From the IMG/VR virus record IMGVR_UViG_3300045988_166882: 64,000 nt of DNA. The stretch is one strand, 5' to 3'. Both the position numbers and the translations under genes were made by a program. Positions 5,884 through 40,227 of this stretch are shown here, piece by piece. A model generated the notes under the pieces. It made no database searches, had not been told where the DNA came from, and saw only the letters and a program-made list of their open reading frames with translations. The number at the start of each line of letters is the position of its first letter. Position 1 is the first letter of the stretch. This stretch comes from a virus.

Positions 5884-5924
5884 ACCGCCCCACAGTAGCG
5901 ATACAGCGAGGCGGTTTTCTTTTA
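5884..5924 (+). terminator. terminator-like hairpin closing the tRNA/ncRNA region
   Basis: ACCGCC (5884-5889) pairs with GGCGGT (5910-5915), followed by TTTTCTTTT. The 20-nt loop is long, so this is a weak call. Confidence 0.4.
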
Positions 5925-5953: not shown

Positions 5954-6832
5954 ATGAAGATAGGAATAATATACAAATTAACCATTTTAGCGAAGTACAA
6001 GTTCTACGGACAACGCCCCTTTTATGTCGGTCAACACTGGGGAATGGAAGACTTTAACTCGTATTTTGGCGGAGGTACAATTTGGAACGATTTTCTGAAT
6101 GTCGTCAAAAAGGATTATCCGCTTCACTGGAAAAAGTTTGTTCGGCGTGAAATTTTATATCAAGGCGCGTGTGATCAACGTGCTTTGGACTTTCTCGAAC
6201 AGTATTACATAAAGCGCGAAATGGCGCATTATACCGAAGAGAAAGGCGGTTGCAACGTTTTACGTGGTACGGCGAATGCGTTTGGCGCTGGGAGTCCGAT
6301 GAAGGACGAAAATTGCAAAAGAAAGCAGGCTGAATCGTTGAAAAAGTATTATGATGAATACGGACATCCGTGTTTAGGTAAAAGGGCAACTCCCGAACTG
6401 CGTAAACGGTTGAGTGAAGCGCATCGAGGCAAGAAACTATCGCCAGAAACGGTTGAAAAGATACGTAAAGCCAACGCTGGAAAGAAACGAACGCCTGAAT
6501 TTTGTGAGTTGATGCGTGAAATGTGGCGTAAACGGAAAGAAGCGGGTTACGTGCCAAAGAATAGAGGGCGAAAAGTCCCCAGGGAAATAGTTGAAAAACG
6601 AGCCGCAGGGGTACGTAAATATTATGCCGAACACGCTTCATCGTTTTTAGGTAAACACCACACCGAGGCTACAAGGTTAAAAATTAGTGAAGCGAATAAA
6701 GGCAAGAAATTACCGCCTTTTTCAGCTGAAACGAAATTAAAGATGAGCCAATCAGCCAAAAAGGCGTGGGCAATTAGAAAACAACAAAATAATTACAATG
6801 CGTCGTTCGAATTATCTTGTAATGGACACTGA
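5954..6832 (+). CDS. GIY-YIG homing endonuclease with NUMOD3-like DNA-binding repeats (free-standing)
   Basis: N-terminal GIIYKLT...FYVGQH matches the GIY/YIG motifs. The C-terminal half has repeated helices ELRKRLSEAHRGKKLSPE, TVEKIRKANAGKKRTPE, EATRLKISEANKGKKLPP and ETKLKMSQSAKK. Visibly AT-richer than the flanks. Confidence 0.85.
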   Translation: MKIGIIYKLTILAKYKFYGQRPFYVGQHWGMEDFNSYFGGGTIWNDFLNVVKKDYPLHWKKFVRREILYQGACDQRALDFLEQYYIKREMAHYTEEKGGCNVLRGTANAFGAGSPMKDENCKRKQAESLKKYYDEYGHPCLGKRATPELRKRLSEAHRGKKLSPETVEKIRKANAGKKRTPEFCELMREMWRKRKEAGYVPKNRGRKVPREIVEKRAAGVRKYYAEHASSFLGKHHTEATRLKISEANKGKKLPPFSAETKLKMSQSAKKAWAIRKQQNNYNASFELSCNGH

Positions 6833-8756: not shown

Positions 8757-11474
8757 ATGATGCCTCAAATTGCGATCCCGTCGTTGACGCACCGTTTGGC
8801 TTGTTTAGACCTCGTTGACGAGATAATCGAGGGTATGGACGAACGCGGCCTTAACGAGATGATGAGTGGCGATACACACGACGTTGACACGATATTTGAT
8901 GCTTTGATGATGGACACGTACCGGATTATGTATACTGGCGACGTGTCGATTGATTTTAAGCCCCGCTATGAAGAGAACGTCTCGGCCGTGGTTGAAGACA
9001 CCCTGCGGTGTGCCAATTTGACGTATTTCATCACCTCCGTCATCCCGGACTTCCAGCTGTCGTGGCACCACTTGGAGTGGGGTGAGTTAGTCCACAACCA
9101 CAAGAAATTGTGTATCAACGCAGCACGTGACCACGGGAAGTGTGAAGCCGTCGGAACCCCTGTCCGGATGTACGACGGAACTATCAAAAAGGTCGAAGAC
9201 GTTGTGGTTGGCGACTTGTTGATGGGCGTCGACTCTAAGCCCCGCCGCGTGGTTGCTACGCGCCGTGGCCACGATTCGATGATGTACCGTATCGACCAGT
9301 CGCGCGGTGATAGCTACACCGTCAACTCACGCCACATTTGTACGCTGATCGAGAAGGACCGCAACGGTTCCATCGCTACAGCGTCGAAGCGGATAGTGGA
9401 TATTGATATTCCGACGCTTTTAAGCAAGACCCCGAACTGGGTGAAGGAACGTTACCGCGGTTTCAAGGTGGCAGTGCAGTACCCCACGCGGCCCGTGGGG
9501 TTGGAACCATATTTTCTTGGGTACTGGTTAGGCGACGGCAACTCCAACAACCAGAAGATCACCACCGCCGACCCTGAAGTGTGTGAGTACTTACACTCTT
9601 ACGCCGAGCGCTTGGGGCTTCACTATGGCCAAAATGGTATGGTAGTGACACTTGGAATTGACGTTCGTGGCCGCGGTAAGCGTAACCCGCTGGAAAGGAT
9701 GCTCAAGGGTTACAACCTGCTCTACAATAAGCACATTCCGGAGCAGTACCTCGTCAACAGCGAAGAAGTTCGTCTTCAGGTGTTGGCTGGGTTGATCGAT
9801 TCCGACGGTAACTATTGGCAGGGCGGCTATCACTTCGGTAATACGAACTACCAGTTGGTGTGTGACGTGAAGAACTTGGCCGACAGCCTTGGCTTCTGTA
9901 CCCGAATGGGTGGTGGAACGCGGTATTGTAAAGCGTTAGGCCGCGACTATTCGTCGTGGTGCGTGACTATTTCTGGTGAACTGGACCGCATCCCAGTAAA
10001 GATCGCTCGTAAAAAGGTCCAAACCGACTGGGCCGCCAAGACGTCACACAAGGACTGGGGCACTATCGACGGCGTACACCCTACGGTGGTATCGTCGTTG
10101 AAGATCACGCCCGCGGGTGAAGGTGACTACATATCTATCACCACCGACGGCGACCACCGCTTCGTGCTGGGTGACGGTACGGTTACGCACAACTCGTTCT
10201 ATTTCTCCAACGCCTACGCCGCGTGGCAATTATACCGCTATAAGAAGCCGTCAACGACCCGTTACTCGAAGCGTCCCACGGTAGCGTCGTCGAATCGCGG
10301 CTTCTTGTTTTCGTTCTCACTCCAGCAGAGCGTTGACCTCTTGGAGATTCTGAAAGGAACCATCGAGGAAAACGAGATTTTGAAGGAACGCCTGCTACCC
10401 CAGTCCACGGCCAACAACTGGTCGGCTACCAATATCGTGTGCCGTAACGGCGCGCGTTTGACGGGTAAGGGTTTTGGGTCTTCGGTGCGTGGTGCTCACC
10501 CCTACTGGATTATCGTCGATGACGGCCTGAAGGACAACGTCATCTATTCCAGCCTCCAGCGAAATAAGTCTACCGACTATTTCCATTCCGTAATTATGAA
10601 TATGCTCGTACCCGGCGGCCAGATCGTTGTCGTCGGTACGCCGTTCCACGCCGAGGACCTTTACGGCGACCTCAAGACCAAGAACGGTTGGTTCGTGATC
10701 GAGTACCCAGCCATCTTCCCCGACGGGCGAATCCTTTGGCCGCAGCGTTGGTCGTTTAAGGACCTGATGGACAAAAAGGAGACCCAAGGCTCGATCATCT
10801 TCTCGCGTGAGAACCTTTGCCGCCCGATCACCAACGAATCGTCGATCTTCCCGATGGAAATCCTCACTCGGTCGTTGCTGCGTATGGAGAACTACACGTT
10901 GGTGGATTCACGCGAAGAGTTCCCCGTTAAGTTCTCCAAGGTAGTCGTGGGCTGTGACTTCGCTATGTCGGCCAACGTCGGTGCTGACTACGCCGTATTC
11001 AGCGTGTGGGGTATTGACGAACTGACCGACGAGCGTTGGCTGCTTCACCTGTGGCGTGAAAAGGGTGCCAAGTTCTTCGAACAGATGAACGTCCTGCGCC
11101 GTATCAACTCGCGTTTCCGGCCCGACCTGATCGTGATGGAGAACAACACCTTCCAGCAGATATTCGTCGAAACGGCCGACACTGAGGGTATGCCCGTGAT
11201 TGGCCACACTACGGGAATTGATAAGTACGACCTGAAGACGGGGTGGCCTCACCTGTCGACGCTATTCGAGCGGGGCAAAATCCACATCCCGGTGGGTAAC
11301 GTCTACTCTCAGCAGGTGAAAGACCTCATCTTCCAAGACCTCGGTTCAGTGGCCTTCACCGAAAAAGGCTTGGAAAGCGTGGGCAGCCACGACGATATTT
11401 CGTCGTCGTTCTGGTTGGCTGACTTGGCCGCTTCGCGTATGACTACGGGCTTTAAGTTTGATATGTTAGGTTAG
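8757..11474 (+). CDS. terL: terminase large subunit, interrupted by an intein
   Basis: Extein motifs:
- Walker A AARDHGK|S, split after K128.
- Walker B YWIIVDDG.
- Coupling motif VVVGTPFH.
- RNase-H-like nuclease acidic residues VVGCDFAMS and GSHDDISSS.
The extein is about 554 aa. The gene ends with TAG. Confidence 0.9.
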   Translation: MMPQIAIPSLTHRLACLDLVDEIIEGMDERGLNEMMSGDTHDVDTIFDALMMDTYRIMYTGDVSIDFKPRYEENVSAVVEDTLRCANLTYFITSVIPDFQLSWHHLEWGELVHNHKKLCINAARDHGKCEAVGTPVRMYDGTIKKVEDVVVGDLLMGVDSKPRRVVATRRGHDSMMYRIDQSRGDSYTVNSRHICTLIEKDRNGSIATASKRIVDIDIPTLLSKTPNWVKERYRGFKVAVQYPTRPVGLEPYFLGYWLGDGNSNNQKITTADPEVCEYLHSYAERLGLHYGQNGMVVTLGIDVRGRGKRNPLERMLKGYNLLYNKHIPEQYLVNSEEVRLQVLAGLIDSDGNYWQGGYHFGNTNYQLVCDVKNLADSLGFCTRMGGGTRYCKALGRDYSSWCVTISGELDRIPVKIARKKVQTDWAAKTSHKDWGTIDGVHPTVVSSLKITPAGEGDYISITTDGDHRFVLGDGTVTHNSFYFSNAYAAWQLYRYKKPSTTRYSKRPTVASSNRGFLFSFSLQQSVDLLEILKGTIEENEILKERLLPQSTANNWSATNIVCRNGARLTGKGFGSSVRGAHPYWIIVDDGLKDNVIYSSLQRNKSTDYFHSVIMNMLVPGGQIVVVGTPFHAEDLYGDLKTKNGWFVIEYPAIFPDGRILWPQRWSFKDLMDKKETQGSIIFSRENLCRPITNESSIFPMEILTRSLLRMENYTLVDSREEFPVKFSKVVVGCDFAMSANVGADYAVFSVWGIDELTDERWLLHLWREKGAKFFEQMNVLRRINSRFRPDLIVMENNTFQQIFVETADTEGMPVIGHTTGIDKYDLKTGWPHLSTLFERGKIHIPVGNVYSQQVKDLIFQDLGSVAFTEKGLESVGSHDDISSSFWLADLAASRMTTGFKFDMLG
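9141..10193 (+). mobile_element. intein (351 aa) with LAGLIDADG homing-endonuclease domain
   Basis: Begins at Cys (TGT 9141, CEAVGTPV). Has TVNSRHICT (block B), the two dodecapeptide motifs YFLGYWLGDGNS and LAGLIDSDGNY, and ends GTVTHN (AAC 10191-10193) followed by Ser+1. Confidence 0.85.
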
Positions 11475-29681: not shown

Positions 29682-30485
29682 ATGGATTGTCAATTCTTCG
29701 TCGTGTCCAAGAACCGCCCCAAGTGCGTCACGACCAAATTGTTGGAAAAGGGCGGCGTCGACTACCACATCGTGGTCGAAAAGGAAGACGTTGAAAAGTA
29801 CGTCGAAGCAGGTCACGACCGTAAGCGGTTGATCGTACTACCAGCGTCGAACCGCGGCTACAGCTACGTGGTCAATTTCTGCAAGAACACCTACCTCCGC
29901 GCCGGGCGGCCTGTGGTGGTGATGGATGACGATATCGCCAACTTCTTCTACTCGATCGACGGCGAAGCCAAATGCGGCCTTTCGCTGAAGACCCCAGAAG
30001 AACTGTCAGAGTTCTTTGAAGAGTTCAACCGCGAAGTCATGGAGACCGACTTCGAGTACGGCACCATGGGCAAGAGCGCCTTCGACTGGAGTTGTACCGA
30101 CGTCAGCCCGCGTTTCAAGTACGGCGGTATCCCTCACCTCATCGTGTTCAAAGGGCTGCGGACGCTGGAGTTGGACTTTGACGAAAAGTTGGAGTTGAAG
30201 TGCGACATCGACTATTCGTTGAAGTGTATGTATCTGGGCATCGTCTACGCACGCTTCGTACGCTTCCTTCTCCAGAGTAAGATGAACAAGGAGGCAAATC
30301 AGGGCGGCGGCCTTCAAGACGTGTACGAGCGTCAGGAACGTGTTCAGCGTGCTCACAACATCATATTGAAGCGGTGGCCGCTGAACGCCCGTGTCGATGA
30401 CAAGAAGAAGCCCATCAACGGCGTACCGGAGTTACGTATTGTGTACAAGAAATTTGATATTGACTTTGATGCGGTGGAGGTGTAG
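29682..30485 (+). CDS. GT-A-like (DxD) glycosyltransferase candidate, paralogue of 11494..12309
   Basis: FFVVSKNRP...HIVVEKEDV...VVVMDDDIANF...ANQGGGLQDVY. See the entry at 11494. Family not verified. Confidence 0.45.
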   Translation: MDCQFFVVSKNRPKCVTTKLLEKGGVDYHIVVEKEDVEKYVEAGHDRKRLIVLPASNRGYSYVVNFCKNTYLRAGRPVVVMDDDIANFFYSIDGEAKCGLSLKTPEELSEFFEEFNREVMETDFEYGTMGKSAFDWSCTDVSPRFKYGGIPHLIVFKGLRTLELDFDEKLELKCDIDYSLKCMYLGIVYARFVRFLLQSKMNKEANQGGGLQDVYERQERVQRAHNIILKRWPLNARVDDKKKPINGVPELRIVYKKFDIDFDAVEV

Positions 30486-35075: not shown

Positions 35076-35577
35076 TCCCGCGGCGTTCGCTATCAACGAC
35101 ACCGTGCGCGACCTCATCAGTAAGGTGGCCGATGATACCGCCAACCCCGAAATCGTCATCACCTCGACGCTCCGTACCCCTGAAGCGCAGGCCAAGGCTA
35201 TGGCCGACAACCTGTATGCCGGTAAACGTATCCGCTACCGTGCGCCGGGTGCAGCCGTTACCAAGGTCTTTGACGACAACTGCAAAAAGCAGGCCCGCTC
35301 CGAGGTCGAGAAACTGATGGTGGCTGAAATCGAACGCCAAGCCGCCATGGGGCAGCGTGTATCGCTTCACTGTACGACGGAGGCGTTGTACCGCCAGTGT
35401 AACATCATCGACCTTTCGATCTCGCAGATGAAGAACCCGCGTGACTTCACCAACGCTTTGGCTAAAGAGGAGAAGTGCCGTAAGATCATCACGCCGCTTG
35501 GCGACGTTAAGTATGAAAGCCCCAAGGTGTCTATCGACGGCAATGAAGCCGCGCTCCACGTCGAGATTTTGGCGTAA
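35053..35577 (+). CDS. M15/LAS-type zinc peptidase, endolysin candidate
   Basis: ITSTLRTPEAQ, SLH...IIDLS and ALHVEI parallel the xGxRTxxxQ / SxH...D / HVE ligand pattern of T5-type L-alanyl-D-glutamate peptidases. The H-to-D spacing is longer than usual. Confidence 0.5.
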   Translation: MAKITYNNPAAFAINDTVRDLISKVADDTANPEIVITSTLRTPEAQAKAMADNLYAGKRIRYRAPGAAVTKVFDDNCKKQARSEVEKLMVAEIERQAAMGQRVSLHCTTEALYRQCNIIDLSISQMKNPRDFTNALAKEEKCRKIITPLGDVKYESPKVSIDGNEAALHVEILA

Positions 35578-35613
35578 CAAGTATAATGTTAGAAACTTAT
35601 AAAATTTAAGAAT
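35574..35613 (+). promoter_or_regulatory. conserved intergenic element GTAACAAGTATAAT...AAATTTAAGA (late-promoter candidate)
   Basis: 14/14 identity with 54927-54940, and AAATTTAAGA is shared just before the ATG. A related ACAAGTATAA occurs at 38645. Confidence 0.4.
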
Positions 35614-37359
35614 ATGCCGAGTTTTGTAAATATGGCGTCGCTTACCAAGTTGACGTCGATTACGGGAAACGAAGAGTTTCAAGTCTCAGCTACCAACAAG
35701 ATTAGTTCAAGAGACATAGCTTCATTGGCGCTTACACAGCAATTACATGGTTTATCGGAGGTCACTATTGGATCACCAAAAATATCAAGTACCTCGTTGT
35801 TGCTGTCTGCCATAGCAGCACTTTACAGGCTTAGTAGCGACAATGGTAAAATACTTCCAATTTCCAACGGTATTGATAAGTTCGGAAATGTCGTTTTTTC
35901 CGGTACTAATGCAGTCGGGATATTATTCGATGTGAAGGCATCCAAATACTTTACCCGATCAGGAGTGACTGCCACTGCAATCTTCAACAGCGCGCAATGG
36001 ATTTCTTGGTTGCAAGACGGAGAGGCTCATGAGATGGACGGTGGTTCCGGTGTTGCCGATCCGATTCAGATTCACGACTTCGCCGAGGTCAGTGCTATCG
36101 ACAACTGGCCGACGCCTAAAGACGGTCTGATTATTCCGTTTGTTACGGATTCAGGCGTTCTGAATAAACCGGGGAACGAATCCGAGTACGTGGGCATCAT
36201 CATCTGCGAAGTAGATACCCAAAATACGGGCCGCGCCGAAGTAATTGCTTACGGATGTGGAACTGGTGCGTGCTATGTAGGATTACTGGATTATGCTTCG
36301 GTCAGTATCGAATGGATGGTAAACAAAATGTCGGTCGCTGGCAAAAAACTTAGCGCGTTTACCGGTACTGCAATCGGAAACTATATTCAGAGCATGGGAA
36401 ATGCTGGTGACTTATTTCCGTTCGTCACTGTAAACGCCAACAAGACTACCGCTAACCAGTTTCCGGCCAACGGTGCATGGAGTGGATTCGTCACCATTGG
36501 TGACGGGGGTGGTGTAAACATTATTGCTTTCAAAAGCACCACTGATCCGAATGCCGAGGTTTATGTCGGTCGTTGTAGTGGCGGCACTACCCAATGGACC
36601 CTCGTCGGTGGTGGTAGTGGTGGTGGTGGTGGACTGGACGTGATTAATGTTCCTATGGGCGGTGATATAGGCTCCATCATTGCTGGTGCAAACTGGAAAC
36701 AAACGGGAATGGAGGGAGAGATGAAAGCCGTTTTTGTCTTGGACCCTGCAAGTGTTGTTGGAGACTATTTTCCGAATCTTAAAAACGCTCAGACACTCGC
36801 AGGATTTGCTCAATGTGTCTATGACGGTTCAGACTATCAGTATTTCATAACCACCCTATTCCCGTATACAGACACATTACGCAATCTCTCAAAAGAGTAT
36901 GGGCGAATTCTTTCAGAAACTAACGGGGATGTTATCGACTATGAAGAATATCCGTATTGTGGAGAGGCCCCTATTCCCGGTTATTCTACTTTAGTGAACG
37001 TATGGCGTGGTCCTTTAGTGACAGATAGTACCGGGGTTATAAATTTTAACGCTGAGATACCTACATCTTCAAAGATATTGGTTGTCGCAAAACTGCGTAG
37101 CTCAACTGCTACAACAGCCAATGTCGTAGCGAATATCCCTATAACTTTTGTTGATGTAAATTCGACAGGCCAAGGAATTATACTCGACTACACAAACCTA
37201 CTCATAGGTAAAAACGGTGTTCCCGGTTCCATAAGGCTCATTTGTTCGTCTGTTATTACTGGAGCTACGGGTGTACAAGGTATGAATTTCGTGTTACAAG
37301 TGAGCAACGTATCAGATGTGTCTAATATTCTCGAAATAGCGATGTATAGCAATAGATAG
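35614..37359 (+). CDS. tail fibre / receptor-binding protein (expressed orientation)
   Basis: 581 aa, Ser/Thr/Gly/Asn-rich, with a Gly linker GGGSGGGGG. The C-terminal 252 aa are homologous to the inverted cassette 37844..38605. The locus is AT-richer than its neighbours. Ends with TAG. Confidence 0.6.
   Translation: MPSFVNMASLTKLTSITGNEEFQVSATNKISSRDIASLALTQQLHGLSEVTIGSPKISSTSLLLSAIAALYRLSSDNGKILPISNGIDKFGNVVFSGTNAVGILFDVKASKYFTRSGVTATAIFNSAQWISWLQDGEAHEMDGGSGVADPIQIHDFAEVSAIDNWPTPKDGLIIPFVTDSGVLNKPGNESEYVGIIICEVDTQNTGRAEVIAYGCGTGACYVGLLDYASVSIEWMVNKMSVAGKKLSAFTGTAIGNYIQSMGNAGDLFPFVTVNANKTTANQFPANGAWSGFVTIGDGGGVNIIAFKSTTDPNAEVYVGRCSGGTTQWTLVGGGSGGGGGLDVINVPMGGDIGSIIAGANWKQTGMEGEMKAVFVLDPASVVGDYFPNLKNAQTLAGFAQCVYDGSDYQYFITTLFPYTDTLRNLSKEYGRILSETNGDVIDYEEYPYCGEAPIPGYSTLVNVWRGPLVTDSTGVINFNAEIPTSSKILVVAKLRSSTATTANVVANIPITFVDVNSTGQGIILDYTNLLIGKNGVPGSIRLICSSVITGATGVQGMNFVLQVSNVSDVSNILEIAMYSNR
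36589..36600 (+). repeat. left arm of 12-nt imperfect inverted repeat (ACCCAATGGACC) at the constant/variable junction
   Basis: Encodes T-Q-W-T. Its partner at 38594..38605 reads ACCCAGTGGACC on the minus strand (11/12 identical), in the same codon phase. Confidence 0.55.
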
Positions 37360-37401
37360 ATTAACAGTGGTGCATCTTCGGGTGGAATAGCTCCCGGTAC
37401 A

Positions 37402-37809
37402 GTGATATTCAACGACGAATTTTCGTTTGATGGCTACACCAGCGCAAATCCCGGTCAGTTGTCTCTCTTACAACCTATTCCGTTAGGGTCCATAGTGACT
37501 TTCATAGGATCGTATTATTTTGGACTTCCCGCCGAAGAAATTTTACTTTCACCCGAAAGCCATACATGGTCATTTACAGTAGCTTTACCCACTGGAGCTT
37601 CCAGTGTCGCACACTATCTGAAAGACATGTTAGTCGTGCAAAATCCCGATACAAATTTGGTAGTAGACAGACAATCCGCGATGTACAAAATAGATGCCAA
37701 AAATCTCGTTAATGGCAAAATCAGTACAATAGATATGTACGCTACTGGAGTTCTGTTGTCTGATATGTATTTAACGATTGAGCAAATTATCTATGTTGCG
37801 CAGGTATAG
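37402..37809 (+). CDS. hypothetical protein (135 aa), possibly fibre chaperone or read-through extension
   Basis: No ATG start (GTG at 37402). It is in the same frame as the fibre gene and separated from it only by TAG (37357-37359) plus 14 sense codons. Confidence 0.4.
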   Translation: MIFNDEFSFDGYTSANPGQLSLLQPIPLGSIVTFIGSYYFGLPAEEILLSPESHTWSFTVALPTGASSVAHYLKDMLVVQNPDTNLVVDRQSAMYKIDAKNLVNGKISTIDMYATGVLLSDMYLTIEQIIYVAQV

Positions 37810-37813
37810 AATA

Positions 37814-37845
37814 AATCCCCCTCCTATTAAGAGGGGGATTTTCTT
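37814..37845. terminator. bidirectional rho-independent terminator between convergent genes
   Basis: Perfect 10-bp stem AATCCCCCTC / GAGGGGGATT with a 7-nt loop. T-rich on the + side (TTTCTT) and A-rich upstream (T-rich on the minus strand). Confidence 0.8.
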
Positions 37846-38533
37846 AGATATTGGCATACACACCTTTAATCCGCAAAATATCAGATGGATTACCTAAATT
37901 GTTTGATGTTACAACTACTTGTAATCCCTGAATCCCTTTCGCTCCTGTCACAACAGAAGCAACATTCAAACGGATTTGCCCGATATTAGTTCCGGACGCA
38001 ATACTTCGGGTGTTCAAATCCATAAGTGTTGCTGCTTGTACGGGATTAAAGAACGTTACAGGAATAGCCACTGATCGAATGTCAGCATTGGGACCAGCCG
38101 ATGATCTGAGTTCGGCGTCAATGAACATTGCCGTACTGTTGATGACCTCATAGTTAAAATTCACAATCATCAAACTCCCTGCTGATAATGCCAAGTCATA
38201 TTGATTGGCTATTTTGGTAAATCCGGGGATAGGGGATGCAAAGGTACCAATGGGGGTCAACATGGTCTCCATTACGTCACCGCTATTGTTCATCAGCACT
38301 TCTCCCCGGTAAGCGATCCGGCCTGATGTTTCCCATATTGTGAAGGTTAGTCCAATGTGTTGATAATCTCCGCCATCATACACACGCTGGGCATATCCAA
38401 CAATAGTAGATTCAGCCTGCGGAAAAGAAGCGTTTTTGATCTGAGGTAATTGATCGTATATATCGGATGACGGCTCTATGAATACAGGCACTATTTCGCC
38501 ATCCTTATCCCACGAGTGATTTTCAACAATCAT
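37844..38533 (-). CDS. alternative tail-fibre C-terminal cassette (only minus-strand gene), likely silent/5'-truncated in this orientation
   Basis: The 229-aa ORF aligns block by block with the C-terminus of 35614..37359. The homology continues 24 codons upstream of its ATG, up to position 38605, in an open frame with no start codon. Confidence 0.6.
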   Translation of the reverse strand: MIVENHSWDKDGEIVPVFIEPSSDIYDQLPQIKNASFPQAESTIVGYAQRVYDGGDYQHIGLTFTIWETSGRIAYRGEVLMNNSGDVMETMLTPIGTFASPIPGFTKIANQYDLALSAGSLMIVNFNYEVINSTAMFIDAELRSSAGPNADIRSVAIPVTFFNPVQAATLMDLNTRSIASGTNIGQIRLNVASVVTGAKGIQGLQVVVTSNNLGNPSDILRIKGVYANI

Positions 38534-38593
38534 CGTGATGGATTCATCCGACCCGATGTATATAGGGTCAACTGCCCCACCTCCGCCAACAGC

Positions 38594-38605
38594 GGTCCAC
38601 TGGGT
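38594..38605 (-). repeat. right arm of the inverted repeat (ACCCAGTGGACC on the minus strand)
   Basis: See 36589..36600. Homology between the two fibre copies starts exactly here. Confidence 0.55.
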
Positions 38606-38644
38606 GGGGACGTGTTTTGCCCCACGTCAACACGATTCGCCATT

Positions 38645-38654
38645 ACAAGTATAA
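38645..38654 (+). promoter_or_regulatory. ACAAGTATAA element upstream of the prohead protease gene
   Basis: Matches the core of the 35574 and 54927 elements. It lies 29 nt upstream of ATG 38683. Confidence 0.3.
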
Positions 38655-38682: not shown

Positions 38683-40227
38683 ATGTTTAAGGACGATAAA
38701 TTCAATTTCTGGTGCCCTATCGGGCGCATCGAGAAGGCCACCGACGAAGCGGGTGAACCCGTTATGCGTATCGGCGGTATTGCCTCTACCATGGATAAGG
38801 ACGCCGATGGCGAATACCTCGATCCCACGGGGTTTGACATCGAGCCGCTGAAGAACTCCGGAATGGTTAACTGGCACCACCAAGCCAAGAACTCCCCAGC
38901 CGCTATTATCGGTGAGCCGTCGAAGGTCGAGTTGCGTCCTGAAGGTCTTTGGATCGAGAGCGACCTGTACGCTTCGTCGCCTATGGCTAATGAGGTCTAC
39001 GAACTGGCCAAAACTCTCGAAGAAGACAGCAAGACGCGCCGCTTGGGGTATTCCATCGAAGGAAAGGTTGTAAAGCGTGCTTCTAACGACAAGAAGTCGC
39101 CCCTCTACAACAAGATCGTTAAGGCCGTTATCACTGGCGTGGCCGTAACCCACATGCCCAAGAATCCTCATACGTTCGTCAACATCATAAAAGGCCAAAT
39201 CGACGCCGACGGCATTGAGGTCGATTTGGAGGAAGAGGACGACAACGCCGAACAGCGCGGTGGTGATACCGAGAAGAAGGCTCTTACTACGTCCAGTGGC
39301 GCAGCGTTGATGCCTGAGTCGGTCGACGGCCAACCGAAGAAAACGTTCTCGAAATCTTCCGTCATGGAATGTATCTTCCGCGACATTCCAAATATTACAA
39401 TACCGAACGCCCAAGAAGTGTACACTTTAATCAAAAACATATCGGTTATGAACAAACGCAAATCCATCACTTCCGAGGACATCGAGAAGGCATACGACGC
39501 TCTGGGGCTGAATCCCGAGGGTAAGGTTGCCGCCGATGCCGAAGACGTGCAAAAGGGTGACGACGCCGACGGCCAGATGGGTAAGGAAGACGAAACCCAC
39601 GACGACGAGCCGCGTCATAACGCCGCCAACATGAAAAATGCTAAGGCCGGCAAGAAGGAGGAATCCGAAGAGGAGACCGAAGACGACGACGAGGGCTTCG
39701 AGCAGTGCGACAAGAACGGAGCCAAGATGAAGAAGGCCGCCGACAACGACCTCATGAAGGCTATTCAGGGCATTGGTAACGACTTCAAGTCGTACATCAA
39801 AGCTACTGCCGTACTGGTGAACGATCTCCGTCAGAAACGCGCTGAGGACGCTAAACGTATCGCCGAACTCGAAGACGTCATCAAAGGCCAGACCGAGGTC
39901 ATCGAAGGCTTCTCTACCAAACTGGAACGCTACGGCAGCGAGGTTCCGCGCCCCAAGTCGCTGCGTTCGGCTACGGTGGTTGACCGCGCTTTCGCCAAGG
40001 GTGACACCAAAGGCGACATCGAGAAGGCCGACGGCATTACCCGTATCTCCATGACGGAGCATCCCAAGGCCGTTGCTTCGCTGCTCGATCAGGCGTCGTT
40101 CGCCAAGGGCTACGACAAGGAGTACGGTGACGCGCTTTTGGCGTTTGAGGCCAGGCCGGAAGACGGCGTTCCTTCGAACATCATCGCTCGTCTGAAGGCG
40201 GAAACCGGATACGAGATCGTGAAGTAG
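38683..40227 (+). CDS. prohead protease (HK97/U35-like) fused to an acidic scaffold-like C-terminal region
   Basis: The N-terminal ~170 aa (DKDADGEYLD..., VNWHHQ..., AAIIGEP, RLGYSIEGKV) look like a prohead serine protease. The C-terminal ~300 aa are acidic and coiled-coil-like. It lies directly upstream of the capsid gene. Confidence 0.7.
   Translation: MFKDDKFNFWCPIGRIEKATDEAGEPVMRIGGIASTMDKDADGEYLDPTGFDIEPLKNSGMVNWHHQAKNSPAAIIGEPSKVELRPEGLWIESDLYASSPMANEVYELAKTLEEDSKTRRLGYSIEGKVVKRASNDKKSPLYNKIVKAVITGVAVTHMPKNPHTFVNIIKGQIDADGIEVDLEEEDDNAEQRGGDTEKKALTTSSGAALMPESVDGQPKKTFSKSSVMECIFRDIPNITIPNAQEVYTLIKNISVMNKRKSITSEDIEKAYDALGLNPEGKVAADAEDVQKGDDADGQMGKEDETHDDEPRHNAANMKNAKAGKKEESEEETEDDDEGFEQCDKNGAKMKKAADNDLMKAIQGIGNDFKSYIKATAVLVNDLRQKRAEDAKRIAELEDVIKGQTEVIEGFSTKLERYGSEVPRPKSLRSATVVDRAFAKGDTKGDIEKADGITRISMTEHPKAVASLLDQASFAKGYDKEYGDALLAFEARPEDGVPSNIIARLKAETGYEIVK

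Follow-up and report, generated by a model that had tools for sequence, protein, structure and literature searches.

A likely homology-driven flip-flop switch between distal domains in a virion fiber or adhesin of a human gut phage

We analyzed a 64,000-nucleotide stretch of viral DNA (IMG/VR record IMGVR_UViG_3300045988_166882), called the window here, from a human gut phage with a genome of ~100 kb. The locus of interest begins with a plus-strand open reading frame (ORF) at positions 35614 to 37359 that encodes a 581-residue fiber protein. Residues 1 to 329 (35614 to 36600) are the constant part, which ends with T-Q-W-T. The following 252 residues and a TAG stop codon (36601 to 37359) make up the currently expressed tip, tip A. 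Across about 100 database proteins the constant part is 77 to 99% identical, and TQWT and the next residues, V-G-G, are invariant; the C termini are of at least five unrelated tip types. One tip type is found on constant parts that are only 27 to 99% identical.

A promoter-like motif, TAACAAGTATAA, is present on the plus strand at 35575 to 35586, 39 nt upstream of the fiber gene ATG. The motif TnACAAGTATAA occurs eight times in the window, always on the plus strand (2.6 copies expected by chance), and five of the eight copies (5922, 8174, 35575, 38643, and 54928) are 31 to 40 nt before an ATG. This promoter-like motif is also listed among the repeats of the window as direct repeat D6. A further copy found by the motif search, TTACAAGTATAA (38643 to 38654, plus strand), belongs to the next gene and forms the outer boundary of the module. 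That gene is annotated as a prohead protease (38683 to 40227, plus strand).

A reading of the locus made from the sequence alone had called the gene product a tail fiber. The gene is located between portal-side genes and the prohead protease and major capsid genes, far from the baseplate genes and a weak tail-fiber match at 55.7 to 61.5 kb, and in the crAss-like phage cr108_1 a homolog of the constant part is encoded directly after the portal gene. Searches of Pfam and PHROG with the fiber protein returned no match, and a PDB sequence search returned no chain of any solved structure. The AlphaFold2 model of tip A was all-beta, with a pLDDT of 79. Its best PDB fold matches (concanavalin A, R1 pyocin fiber, and adenovirus fiber knob) had E values of at least 2e-3 and TM scores of at most 0.24, and its BFVD matches were uncharacterized phage proteins. 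We retain the reading as a virion fiber or adhesin. The “tail” assignment is unproven, given the location of the gene in the head module, and it has no backing from a family or solved-structure match.

An alternative C terminus, tip B, lies inverted downstream of the fiber gene. This silent cassette occupies 37844 to 38593 on the minus strand, comprises 249 residues after TQWT, and ends with a stop codon at 37844 to 37846. When the 581-residue protein was compared by BLASTP with the minus-strand reading of 37847 to 38626, the two were 34% identical over 264 columns (E = 8e-36), and the match began exactly at T326-Q-W-T of the gene, which is residue 8 of the cassette reading. Within this frame, the ORF from the first ATG, at 38533, encodes only 229 residues (37844 to 38533). 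The homology extends 24 codons farther upstream, where the frame reads C*RGAKHVP-TQWTAVGGGGAVDPIYIGSDESIT-MIVENH, contains no ATG, GTG, or TTG between the TGA and the ATG at 38533, and is closed by that TGA (38627 to 38629, minus strand) 7 codons above TQWT. A search of the window revealed no copy of TnACAAGTATAA upstream of the cassette on the minus strand. The start-less, inverted arrangement proposed in the sequence-only reading was thereby borne out, and the tip alignment that it had suggested, and the suggested structure prediction in the case of tip A, are those given above.

The cassette is widely distributed and well preserved. The public collection contains the exact 229-residue ORF in 82 blocks or more, and all of the silent cassette copies that we compared retain 253 intact codons. 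Pairwise comparison of silent copies gave a pN/pS of 0.15 at a pS of 0.13 to 0.16. By these codon comparisons, the silent cassette is under purifying selection, whereas an armless relic in the same locus, described below, decays.

The segment is bounded by two short arms. The left arm, ACCCAATGGACC (36589 to 36600, plus strand), comprises codons 326 to 329 and is the breakpoint of the reversed blocks in the related genomes L006, L007, and L099. The right arm, ACCCAGTGGACC (38594 to 38605, minus strand), was located by an arm search and is in the same codon phase. The 12-nt inverted repeat had been noticed previously, and we confirmed it with the qualification that the arms match at 11 of 12 positions. 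Only these two matches to the arm sequence exist in the window at up to 1 mismatch. Because two or more matches were also obtained in 7 of 100 shuffled sequences, the repeat alone is weak evidence. At arm position 6, the G has remained with the flank in L006 and L007, whereas in L099 it has traveled with the cassette.

Between the two tips lies a relic of a third tip, type C (37360 to 37809, plus strand), which was recognized by homology. It is start-less and armless, follows the tip A stop directly and in frame, and is 90% identical to the C-terminal 150 residues of N-C type fibers; L002 and L069 have this sequence as an in-frame fusion to the constant part. The relic has an internal deletion in L087, and L006 and L066 have a different relic (E-distal) at the same place. 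The ORF at 37402 to 37809 had been proposed to occupy the position of a chaperone gene. It is not a candidate chaperone gene, and that proposal is replaced by the start-less relic. It is probably what remains of an earlier tip, displaced by the recombination of tip A and its own stop into the locus.

The relic is followed by a hairpin (37813 to 37841; inverted repeat I7, 14-nt arms, 93% complementary) between the convergent cassettes. As anticipated from the sequence, this repeat (37813 to 37826 and 37828 to 37841) scores as terminator-like on both strands, and the terminator is kept between the cassettes in both isomers. A second, G+C-rich hairpin, GTGGGG-N10-CCCCAC (38604 to 38625), overlaps the outer end of the right arm. 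It has compensatory changes in L003 (GTGGGGAC..GTCCCCAC) and L048 (GGTGcGACGG..CCGTCACC), is absent from L053-type and L066-type loci, and is probably not part of the switch. The impression that the locus is AT-richer than its surroundings also held, with a G+C content of 41 to 49% over 35 to 39 kb versus 50 to 59% in the flanks.

The sequence-only reading had predicted that recombination between the arms would invert about 2 kb and fuse the 329-residue N terminus to the alternative 249-residue tip. Sibling genomes contain this arrangement. In five relatives with about 99% identity (L006, L007, L099, L103, and L104), the segment is flipped, and its breakpoints fall within the 12-nt arms or immediately next to them. 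In L006, L007, and L099, the flanks are direct and unchanged and the A and B blocks are reversed, at 97 to 99.8% identity, with breakpoints at the arms. In L103 and L104, positions 36618 to 38059 of the window appear as a single colinear reversed block at 98.4% identity, the exact isomer of the whole segment. The predicted fusion product also exists: the expressed protein P0022 (578 residues) combines an N terminus that is 98.8% identical with a tip that is 100% identical to tip B. Tip A, in turn, lies reversed and silent in L006, L007, and L098 to L106. Both isomers occur naturally, and their breakpoints lie at the arms. They were seen among related genomes from different samples rather than inside one population, and they are probably not misassemblies because the 12-nt arms are shorter than assembler k-mers.

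Inversion is not restricted to tips A and B. L002 and L069 express tip C and have tip B silent, L068 and L008 express B and have C silent, and a clean three-block inversion distinguishes L002 from L068. In its flank, L002 matches L008, which has the opposite orientation, at 99.1% identity but L068 at only 94.9%, so orientation does not track flank relatedness. Across the population we found tip types A, B, C, D, E, G, and K. The same architecture occurs with a constant part that is only about 30% identical (L048 and L052, 30-nt arms) and in a different phage backbone (L047 and L066, 36- to 53-nt arms). Single-tip genomes, such as L056, exist as well.

Comparison with relatives, which had been suggested as a test of whether the 12-nt arms are conserved, showed arms and breakpoints in the siblings but no constancy of arm length, position, or core. 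Arm lengths are 12, 27, 29, 30, 36, 53, and 96 to 104 nt, at two different junctions, and the arms have no common core; in L053, L054, L055, L058, and L061, they are inside the tip and lack the TQWT core. For the single tip pair A/B there are at least three crossover classes, at TGGACC (L006 and L007), at ACCCA (L099), and in the Gly linker (L098 and L101 to L105), and some crossovers are 17 to 29 nt outside the 12-nt arm. L093 has a microhomology footprint, and L008, P0037, and P0113 have chimeric linkers. The 104-nt arms are 100% identical within each of L053, L054, and L061 and 93 to 94% identical between these genomes (6 to 7 sites), a pattern that indicates concerted evolution of the long arms. 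No isomer pair of this 104-nt mid-tip type was present among the few loci available.

We searched for a recombinase with Pfam scans of the 72 ORFs of the window and the 23 ORFs of the remaining ~19 kb, together with precomputed Pfam results for the flanks. No Resolvase, Recombinase, Phage_integrase, or transposase domain was detected in the ~100-kb genome. This result agrees with the earlier failure to recognize a Gin/Cin/Hin-type or tyrosine recombinase in the window and extends it, as had been proposed, to the rest of the phage genome. More than half of the phage ORFs are without a family assignment, and for this reason an unrecognized recombinase is conceivable. The phage does encode RecA-like, SbcC/Metallophos, UvrD, and FEN domains. 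It has no integrase and was not found in bacterial genomes, and on these grounds it is probably virulent. Sites of the gix type are about 26 bp long, with dyad half-sites around a 2-bp core, and have the core consensus AAACC-NN-GGTTT. In the 64-kb window, this consensus had two matches with 1 mismatch (53315 and 55122), which is the chance level, and none near the locus. The arms themselves, ACCCARTGGACC, are not gix-like.

We think it fairly likely that a genuine flip-flop switch operates at this locus, one that exchanges the distal domain of a virion fiber or adhesin and is driven by homology at a conserved domain linker. One promoter would drive the constant part and tip A. The convergent tip B has neither promoter nor start codon, begins at the same T-Q-W-T/Gly-linker codons, and is separated from tip A by the shared bidirectional terminator. 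Recombination between the in-frame inverted linker copies would invert 36589 to 38605, placing B behind the constant part to give the 578-residue product and silencing A. The exchange would require no dedicated invertase or fixed site, only homology- or microhomology-dependent recombination with the conserved TQWT codons and the GGN-repeat linker as its substrate. Possible agents are the phage RecA-like, SbcCD-like, UvrD, and FEN proteins, the host recombination machinery, or template switching during replication. Three features fit such a switch: inverted repeats bound a segment that exists as both isomers among related genomes, there is no fixed core (arm sequence, length, and crossover vary), and the 104-nt arms of L053, L054, and L061 evolve in concert. 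Since 12 nt is at the low end of the observed arm lengths, flipping here is probably infrequent. Arms that match at 11 of 12 nucleotides are very short for RecA-type recombination, which speaks against a homology-driven process. Some orientation variants could also have spread between coinfecting phages via flanking homology, which speaks against repeated flipping.

Three other explanations could account for parts of these data. It is very improbable that the minus-strand ORF is an independent gene whose 229-residue product, for example a second receptor-binding subunit, starts at ATG 38533 and to which inversion is irrelevant. Gene callers annotate this ORF, and a 234- to 239-residue ORF for silent tip A, in many contigs, but in every silent cassette the homology and open frame run 24 codons above the ATG to the arm. 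In addition, the promoter-like motif is absent on the minus side, the C-type silent cassette lacks an ATG at the corresponding site, and the identical tip occurs fused to the constant part. We also consider it unlikely that there is no working switch and that the cassette is a leftover of modular tip exchange, the isomers being products of rare illegitimate recombination that were spread by homologous recombination during coinfection and kept by selection. Tip swapping between genomes at the TQWT linker is rampant: a single constant part carries no fewer than five tip types, and one tip occurs on constant parts that are as divergent as noted above. The type C fossil in the same locus and its decay in L087, the 12-nt arms, and single-tip genomes such as L056 also fit this explanation. 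Under it, however, one would not expect silent cassettes that are always intact, start exactly at the junction, and have a pN/pS of 0.15 between copies, nor a convergent layout with arms that recurs with unrelated tips, ~30% identical constant parts, and another phage backbone. Long arms that are perfectly identical within genomes, orientation that conflicts with flank relatedness, and at least three independent crossover classes for one tip pair argue against it as well.

Bacteroidales carry many invertases, and a host invertase or an unrecognized phage recombinase might act on a core within ACCCARTGGACC, in the manner of Gin/gix or Rci/sfx. The 12-nt arms are the only identical stretch in the genome, yet inversion has occurred there at least twice (L006/L007 and L099; L002 versus L068). 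The A/G at arm position 6 ends on either side, as a heteroduplex in a 6- to 8-bp overlap would give, a hairpin with compensatory changes adjoins the right arm, and many ORFs are unannotated. Nevertheless, such site-specific inversion seems distinctly unlikely to us given the lack of recombinase and transposase domains in the ~100-kb genome and of a gix-like core near the locus. Same-backbone relatives use arms inside the tip that share no core, crossovers also occur 17 to 29 nt outside the arm, and the hairpin is missing from other locus types.

Homology-driven inversion at the linker may have a broader role. As a tentative joint reading, abundant and probably virulent gut phages may use a recombinase-free, homology-driven flip-flop as a programmed change of fiber specificity. 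Short in-frame inverted repeats at domain linkers, kept identical by concerted evolution, would allow general recombination to switch between a silent, promoterless tip and the expressed tip. The arm could be placed at different linkers, so that either the whole tip or only its distal half would be swapped. The whole module, gene plus reversed cassette, would move between unrelated phage backbones, and the fiber gene itself also occurs in a phage of the crAss-like group.

Gut Bacteroidales escape phages by flipping the promoters of their own surface structures. So far, a flip switch on the phage side has been known mainly in invertase-carrying temperate phages of enterobacteria. The locus described here would provide two alternative binding tips from one gene in a very prevalent lineage of ~100-kb gut phages without a recognizable invertase, with related modules in other backbones and the fiber gene family also in a crAss-like phage. 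If switching is frequent, it would help to explain how virulent gut phages and phase-variable hosts coexist over the long term. Inverton pipelines that need a nearby recombinase or long inverted repeats would then miss such loci, and an in-frame inverted linker repeat plus a shared terminator would be a design rule for two-specificity phages.

The sequence-only reading had likened the locus to the Mu G and P1 C segments. As in Mu (G/Gin), P1 (C/Cin), and e14 (P/Pin), inversion joins a constant N terminus to one of two C-terminal receptor-binding parts, as seen in P0022, L006, L007, L099, L103, and L104; the silent alternative is start-less and in opposite orientation, and the crossover is in frame inside the coding sequence. 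The likeness holds for this functional outcome but not for the features that define Gin and Cin systems. Pfam detected no serine invertase beside the locus or elsewhere in the genome, and thus no gene that could be inspected for a Fis-dependent recombinational enhancer; 26-bp sites of the gix/cix type are absent, and a tip-specific assembly gene pair (U/U′) is lacking, with nothing after tip B before the terminator. The arms are instead plain domain-linker coding sequence of 12 to 104 nt, with variable position and crossovers among relatives, and the carrier is a ~100-kb, probably virulent phage without an integrase. In shufflons (R64 Rci/sfx) and multiple-inversion systems (p15B Min), a constant N terminus meets several alternative C-terminal cassettes, and the population studied here likewise holds many cassette types. 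Unlike in shufflons, each genome has one active arm pair and any further cassettes are armless fossils, no Phage_integrase domain that would indicate a tyrosine recombinase is encoded, and there is no conserved 19-bp repeat, the arm being present in only two copies in the window and the third cassette being armless. The locus is not a member of the Mu G, P1 C, or shufflon systems.

Diversity-generating retroelements of Bacteroides and gut phages also alter the distal domain of a phage adhesin, and with it the binding specificity. Here, in contrast, the tip is swapped wholesale, and the identity between the two tips is only 34% across their full length. Pfam found no reverse transcriptase family among the 72 window ORFs and 23 other ORFs, and there is no template/variable repeat pair or long DNA repeat. 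The head and tail fibers of crAss001 (gp21, gp29, and gp22) have a short N-terminal anchor, residues 1 to 26 or 1 to 38, before variable distal domains (PMC10172136). The present protein differs in that its sequence matches no chain among the solved structures; it resembles these fibers in that an N-terminal part precedes variable distal domains. Finally, genome isomerism bounded by inverted repeats has been described in the lytic cyanophages A-1(L), N-1, and Elbi and their relatives, where repeats of 400 to 700 nt enclose a ~30-kb block made up of whole genes, coding sequences are not rebuilt, and homologous recombination is weighed as an alternative to a recombinase (bioRxiv 10.64898/2026.02.14.705889). 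In both cases, the two orientations occur among close relatives without tracking relatedness, and no obligatory recombinase has been identified. In the gut phage, however, the arms are 12 to 104 nt long and lie inside a gene, and inversion alters the protein that is made.

The fibre gene that the sequence-only reading had placed on the + strand was borne out as an ORF of 581 aa (35614..37359), and its proposed counterpart (37844..38533) was the sole sizeable non-shadow ORF on the minus strand. When the 581-aa protein was compared by BLASTP with the minus-strand reading 37847..38626, identity was 34% over 264 columns (E = 8e-36), and the homology began exactly at T326-Q-W-T. We refer to residues 1-329 as the constant part, to the expressed C terminus as tip A, and to the silent minus-strand cassette as tip B. 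The cassette is start-less, as had been claimed: its frame (C*RGAKHVP-TQWTAVGGGGAVDPIYIGSDESIT-M) is closed by a TGA 7 codons above TQWT and has no start codon ahead of the ATG at 38533. The left arm, ACCCAATGGACC (36589-36600), and the right arm, ACCCAGTGGACC (38594-38605, minus strand), lie in the same codon phase and are the only matches to the arm in the window; the repeat taken alone lacks significance, because 7 of 100 shuffles also gave at least two matches. Two further points of the earlier reading held: a bidirectional terminator is present (37813-37841), and G+C content is lower in the locus than around it. A G+C-rich hairpin (38604-38625) overlaps the outer end of the right arm and shows compensatory changes in two related loci, L003 and L048; a role for it as a recombination signal was not supported, as it is missing from L053-type and L066-type loci. 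The motif TnACAAGTATAA, which may be a phage promoter element, occurs on the + strand only, at 5922, 8174, 15773, 32398, 35575, 38643, 45314, and 54928, and the copies at 5922, 8174, 35575, 38643, and 54928 lie 31-40 nt ahead of a start codon.

A search of 5.8 billion proteins recovered about 200 relatives of the fibre protein. Residues 1-329 are conserved at 77-99% among them, and the part after TQWT falls into the unrelated tip types A, B, C, D, E, and G. This set includes the product that inversion was predicted to give: P0022 (578 aa) joins a constant part 98.8% identical to that of the window to a 100% identical cassette B. P0022 is encoded on L006 and L007, contigs from two ENA samples that align to the window at 98.5-99.8% identity as left flank direct, tip A reversed, tip B reversed, and right flank direct, the alignment blocks overlapping by exactly the 12-nt arms. 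Both junctions are covered by a single 3-kb contig, L099. In L103 and L104, window positions 36618-38059 (tip A, the ORF that follows it, the terminator, and part of B) form one colinear block at 98.4% identity that is reversed relative to the protease flank, making it an exact isomer of the window segment. Assembler k-mers are all longer than a 12-nt repeat, from which we infer that these isomers are real DNA arrangements. The contigs on record with a silent tip A (L098-L106) are all short (1-9.3 kb), and those with a silent tip B are often full length; the shortness of the former may stem from assembly graphs broken by minor subpopulations.

The layout extends to other tip pairs. Tip C is expressed and B silent in L002 and L069, the converse holds in L068 and L008, and L002 and L068 differ by a clean three-block inversion. 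The flanks of L002 are 99.1% identical to those of the oppositely oriented L008 and only 94.9% identical to those of L068; orientation therefore does not track flank relatedness. Tip D is joined to the constant part, with B silent, in L080, L083, and L086. The same layout recurs in L048 and L052, with 30-nt perfect arms and a constant part only ~30% identical, and in L047 and L066, with 36- to 53-nt arms, in a different phage backbone that has no neighbouring genes in common. The exact 229-aa silent B ORF recurs across the collection (at least 82 blocks), partnered by expressed fibres of 473-597 aa. The gene family as a whole occurs in at least three unrelated backbones (L001 7989-9749, which is cr108_1; L057; and L047/L066), one of them that of a crAss-like phage (Steigviridae); these keep the TQWT junction and the conserved ~40 aa at the N terminus, and no neighbouring gene recurs across them. 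As a family it is small: 1.84 billion proteins yielded 55 representatives, and a profile made from the tip alignment retrieved just 14 proteins, most of which were silent-cassette ORFs. None of the 185,579 species genomes of bacteria and archaea searched gave a relative. The window's 581-aa protein is itself unrecorded. When JGI metagenomes were scanned for the exact pattern of flank and arm, 5 of the 18 matches carried the locus, and the others are apparently due to chance. One record, IMGVR_UViG_3300029572_000001 (199 kb; L004, L017, L031, L043, L053), consists of two different related ~100-kb phage genomes joined together; these differ in their fibre locus (L053-type versus L004-type), and the L004 constant part is apparently truncated after aa 145.

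The silent B cassettes are intact, with 253 codons in all six compared, and a pN/pS of 0.15 between silent copies (pS 0.13-0.16). The ORF at 37402..37809, previously read as a gene in the chaperone position, turned out instead to be a start-less tip C: it matches the C-terminal 150 aa of tip C at 90% identity, lies in frame directly after the tip A stop, and has no arms. It is a fossil tip, with no chaperone role. Armless fossils sharing the junction ...AGATAGATTAACAGTGGTGCA follow the tip A stop in frame in the window (37360-37809), L087 (8442-8711), and L006 (5254-5682); the type is C in the window and in L087, where an internal stretch is deleted, and in L006, as also in L066, it is E, represented by its distal half. 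This suggests that tip A came in whole, stop codon included, and displaced an older two-domain tip. Read-through of the tip A TAG into the in-frame relic was considered and is unlikely: the genetic code of the phage is the standard one, with all three stops in use (27 TAA, 22 TGA, and 12 TAG), and it has no suppressor tRNA, its sole tRNA being a normal tRNA-Gln(UUG).

How the segment inverts was approached through Pfam scans of all 72 + strand ORFs of the window and 23 ORFs of the remaining ~19 kb of the genome (via L017 and L043), together with precomputed Pfam calls for the flanks. Neither a recombinase of the serine or tyrosine type, nor a transposase, nor a reverse transcriptase turned up in the window ORFs, the remaining ~19 kb, or the flanks; for the window, the lack of a recombinase agrees with the sequence-only reading. 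No gix-like core was found near the locus. RecA, SbcC/Metallophos, UvrD, and 5'-3' exonuclease domains are present in the phage.

The main rival explanation is a site-specific enzyme that either comes from the host or escaped recognition in the phage. Four observations argue against the single fixed site on which it would act. Arm length varies among relatives (12, 27, 29, 30, 36, 53, and 96-104 nt). In L053, L054, L055, L058, and L061, which have the same backbone, the arms lie inside the tip around NGDV...PIPGY and have no core in common with TQWT; these perfect arms of 96-104 nt (L053, L054, L055, and L061, 5481-5584/6369-6472; L058, 5485-5580/6381-6476) accompany a start-less half-tip reversed downstream, and their inversion would swap only the distal half of the tip, ~125 aa. 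The A/B exchange itself shows at least three crossover classes: within TGGACC in L006 and L007, where an A/G difference stays with the flanks; within ACCCA in L099, where that difference travels with the cassettes; and in the Gly linker in L098 and L101-L105, where the silent A bears a B-type TQWT-AV-GGGG linker. Finally, the 104-nt arms are identical within a genome and differ at 6-7 positions between genomes (93-94% identity), a pattern of concerted evolution that implies continuing exchange between arms. Chimeric linkers also occur in L008, P0037, and P0113. In L093 (2890-2940), a second arm stands ahead of the silent B together with 27 nt that duplicate the 3' end of the constant part (TQWT-LVGRCSGGT-TQWT), joined at CGTCGGT, a 7-nt microhomology; we regard this duplication as a putative footprint of aberrant recombination there. 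Given the four observations against one fixed site, we favour homology- or microhomology-dependent recombination, for which the conserved TQWT codons and GGN-repeat linker would serve as substrate, with arms down to 12 nt.

The phage has a genome of ~100-102 kb with all genes on one strand and comes from human gut metagenomes. Its major capsid protein shares 49% identity with its counterparts in the Bacteroides thetaiotaomicron phages DAC16-23 and SJC03 and ~38% with those of SPO1-like phages. The sole phage-database match of the fibre protein was cr108_1, but these capsid affinities and the presence of a Baseplate_J gene rule out a crAss-like origin; the fibre gene alone is common to the two. 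No integrase was found by Pfam in the window, the remaining ~19 kb, or the flanks, and the phage is therefore probably virulent. The window also encodes a 905-aa ORF with an intein-type insertion (8757-11474; Hom_end_hint, Hom_end, LAGLIDADG_3) and a NUMOD3-motif ORF (5954-6832). DNA hypermodification genes lie at 16.8-35.6 kb, namely a 5-hmdU DNA kinase helical domain, a radical SAM/SPASM protein, and two TET-associated glycosyltransferases (TAGT at 29682-30485); a thymidylate-synthase-like gene lies outside the window (L017/L043).

The fibre protein has no sequence match in Pfam, PHROG, or PDB. An AlphaFold2 model of tip A (pLDDT 79) is all-beta, and that of the constant part was unusable (pLDDT 55). 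Fold searches with the tip gave no significant match among solved structures; lectin-like sandwiches, a pyocin fibre, and the adenovirus fibre knob resemble it only weakly (E >= 2e-3, TM <= 0.24), and its BFVD matches are uncharacterised phage proteins, two of them from crAss-like phages. Portal-side genes flank the gene on one side, and those for the prohead protease and major capsid protein on the other; baseplate genes and a weak tail-fibre match are found at 55.7-61.5 kb. The cr108_1 homologue likewise directly follows a portal gene, and the two proteins share the ~40-aa N-terminal stretch (TGNEEFQVSATxKVTAxQIA). In crAss001, head and tail fibres dock via N-terminal stretches of about this length (PMC10172136). 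That the distal domains are mosaic and exchangeable speaks for a role in binding.

Full-text literature searches found no description of the present fibre switch system. A Gin-like system and a shufflon were rejected because the defining features tested for each were absent, and a diversity-generating retroelement was rejected likewise, with no reverse transcriptase found by Pfam. The nearest mechanistic analogue that we found is the isomerism bounded by inverted repeats in lytic cyanophages, although no gene is rebuilt there. On the features tested the locus does not belong to the Mu G family, with no recombinase by Pfam and no gix-like core near it. The earlier comparison with the Mu G segment holds for the working of the switch: here, as in Mu G and P1 C, a constant part is provided with alternative C termini exchanged by in-frame inversion.
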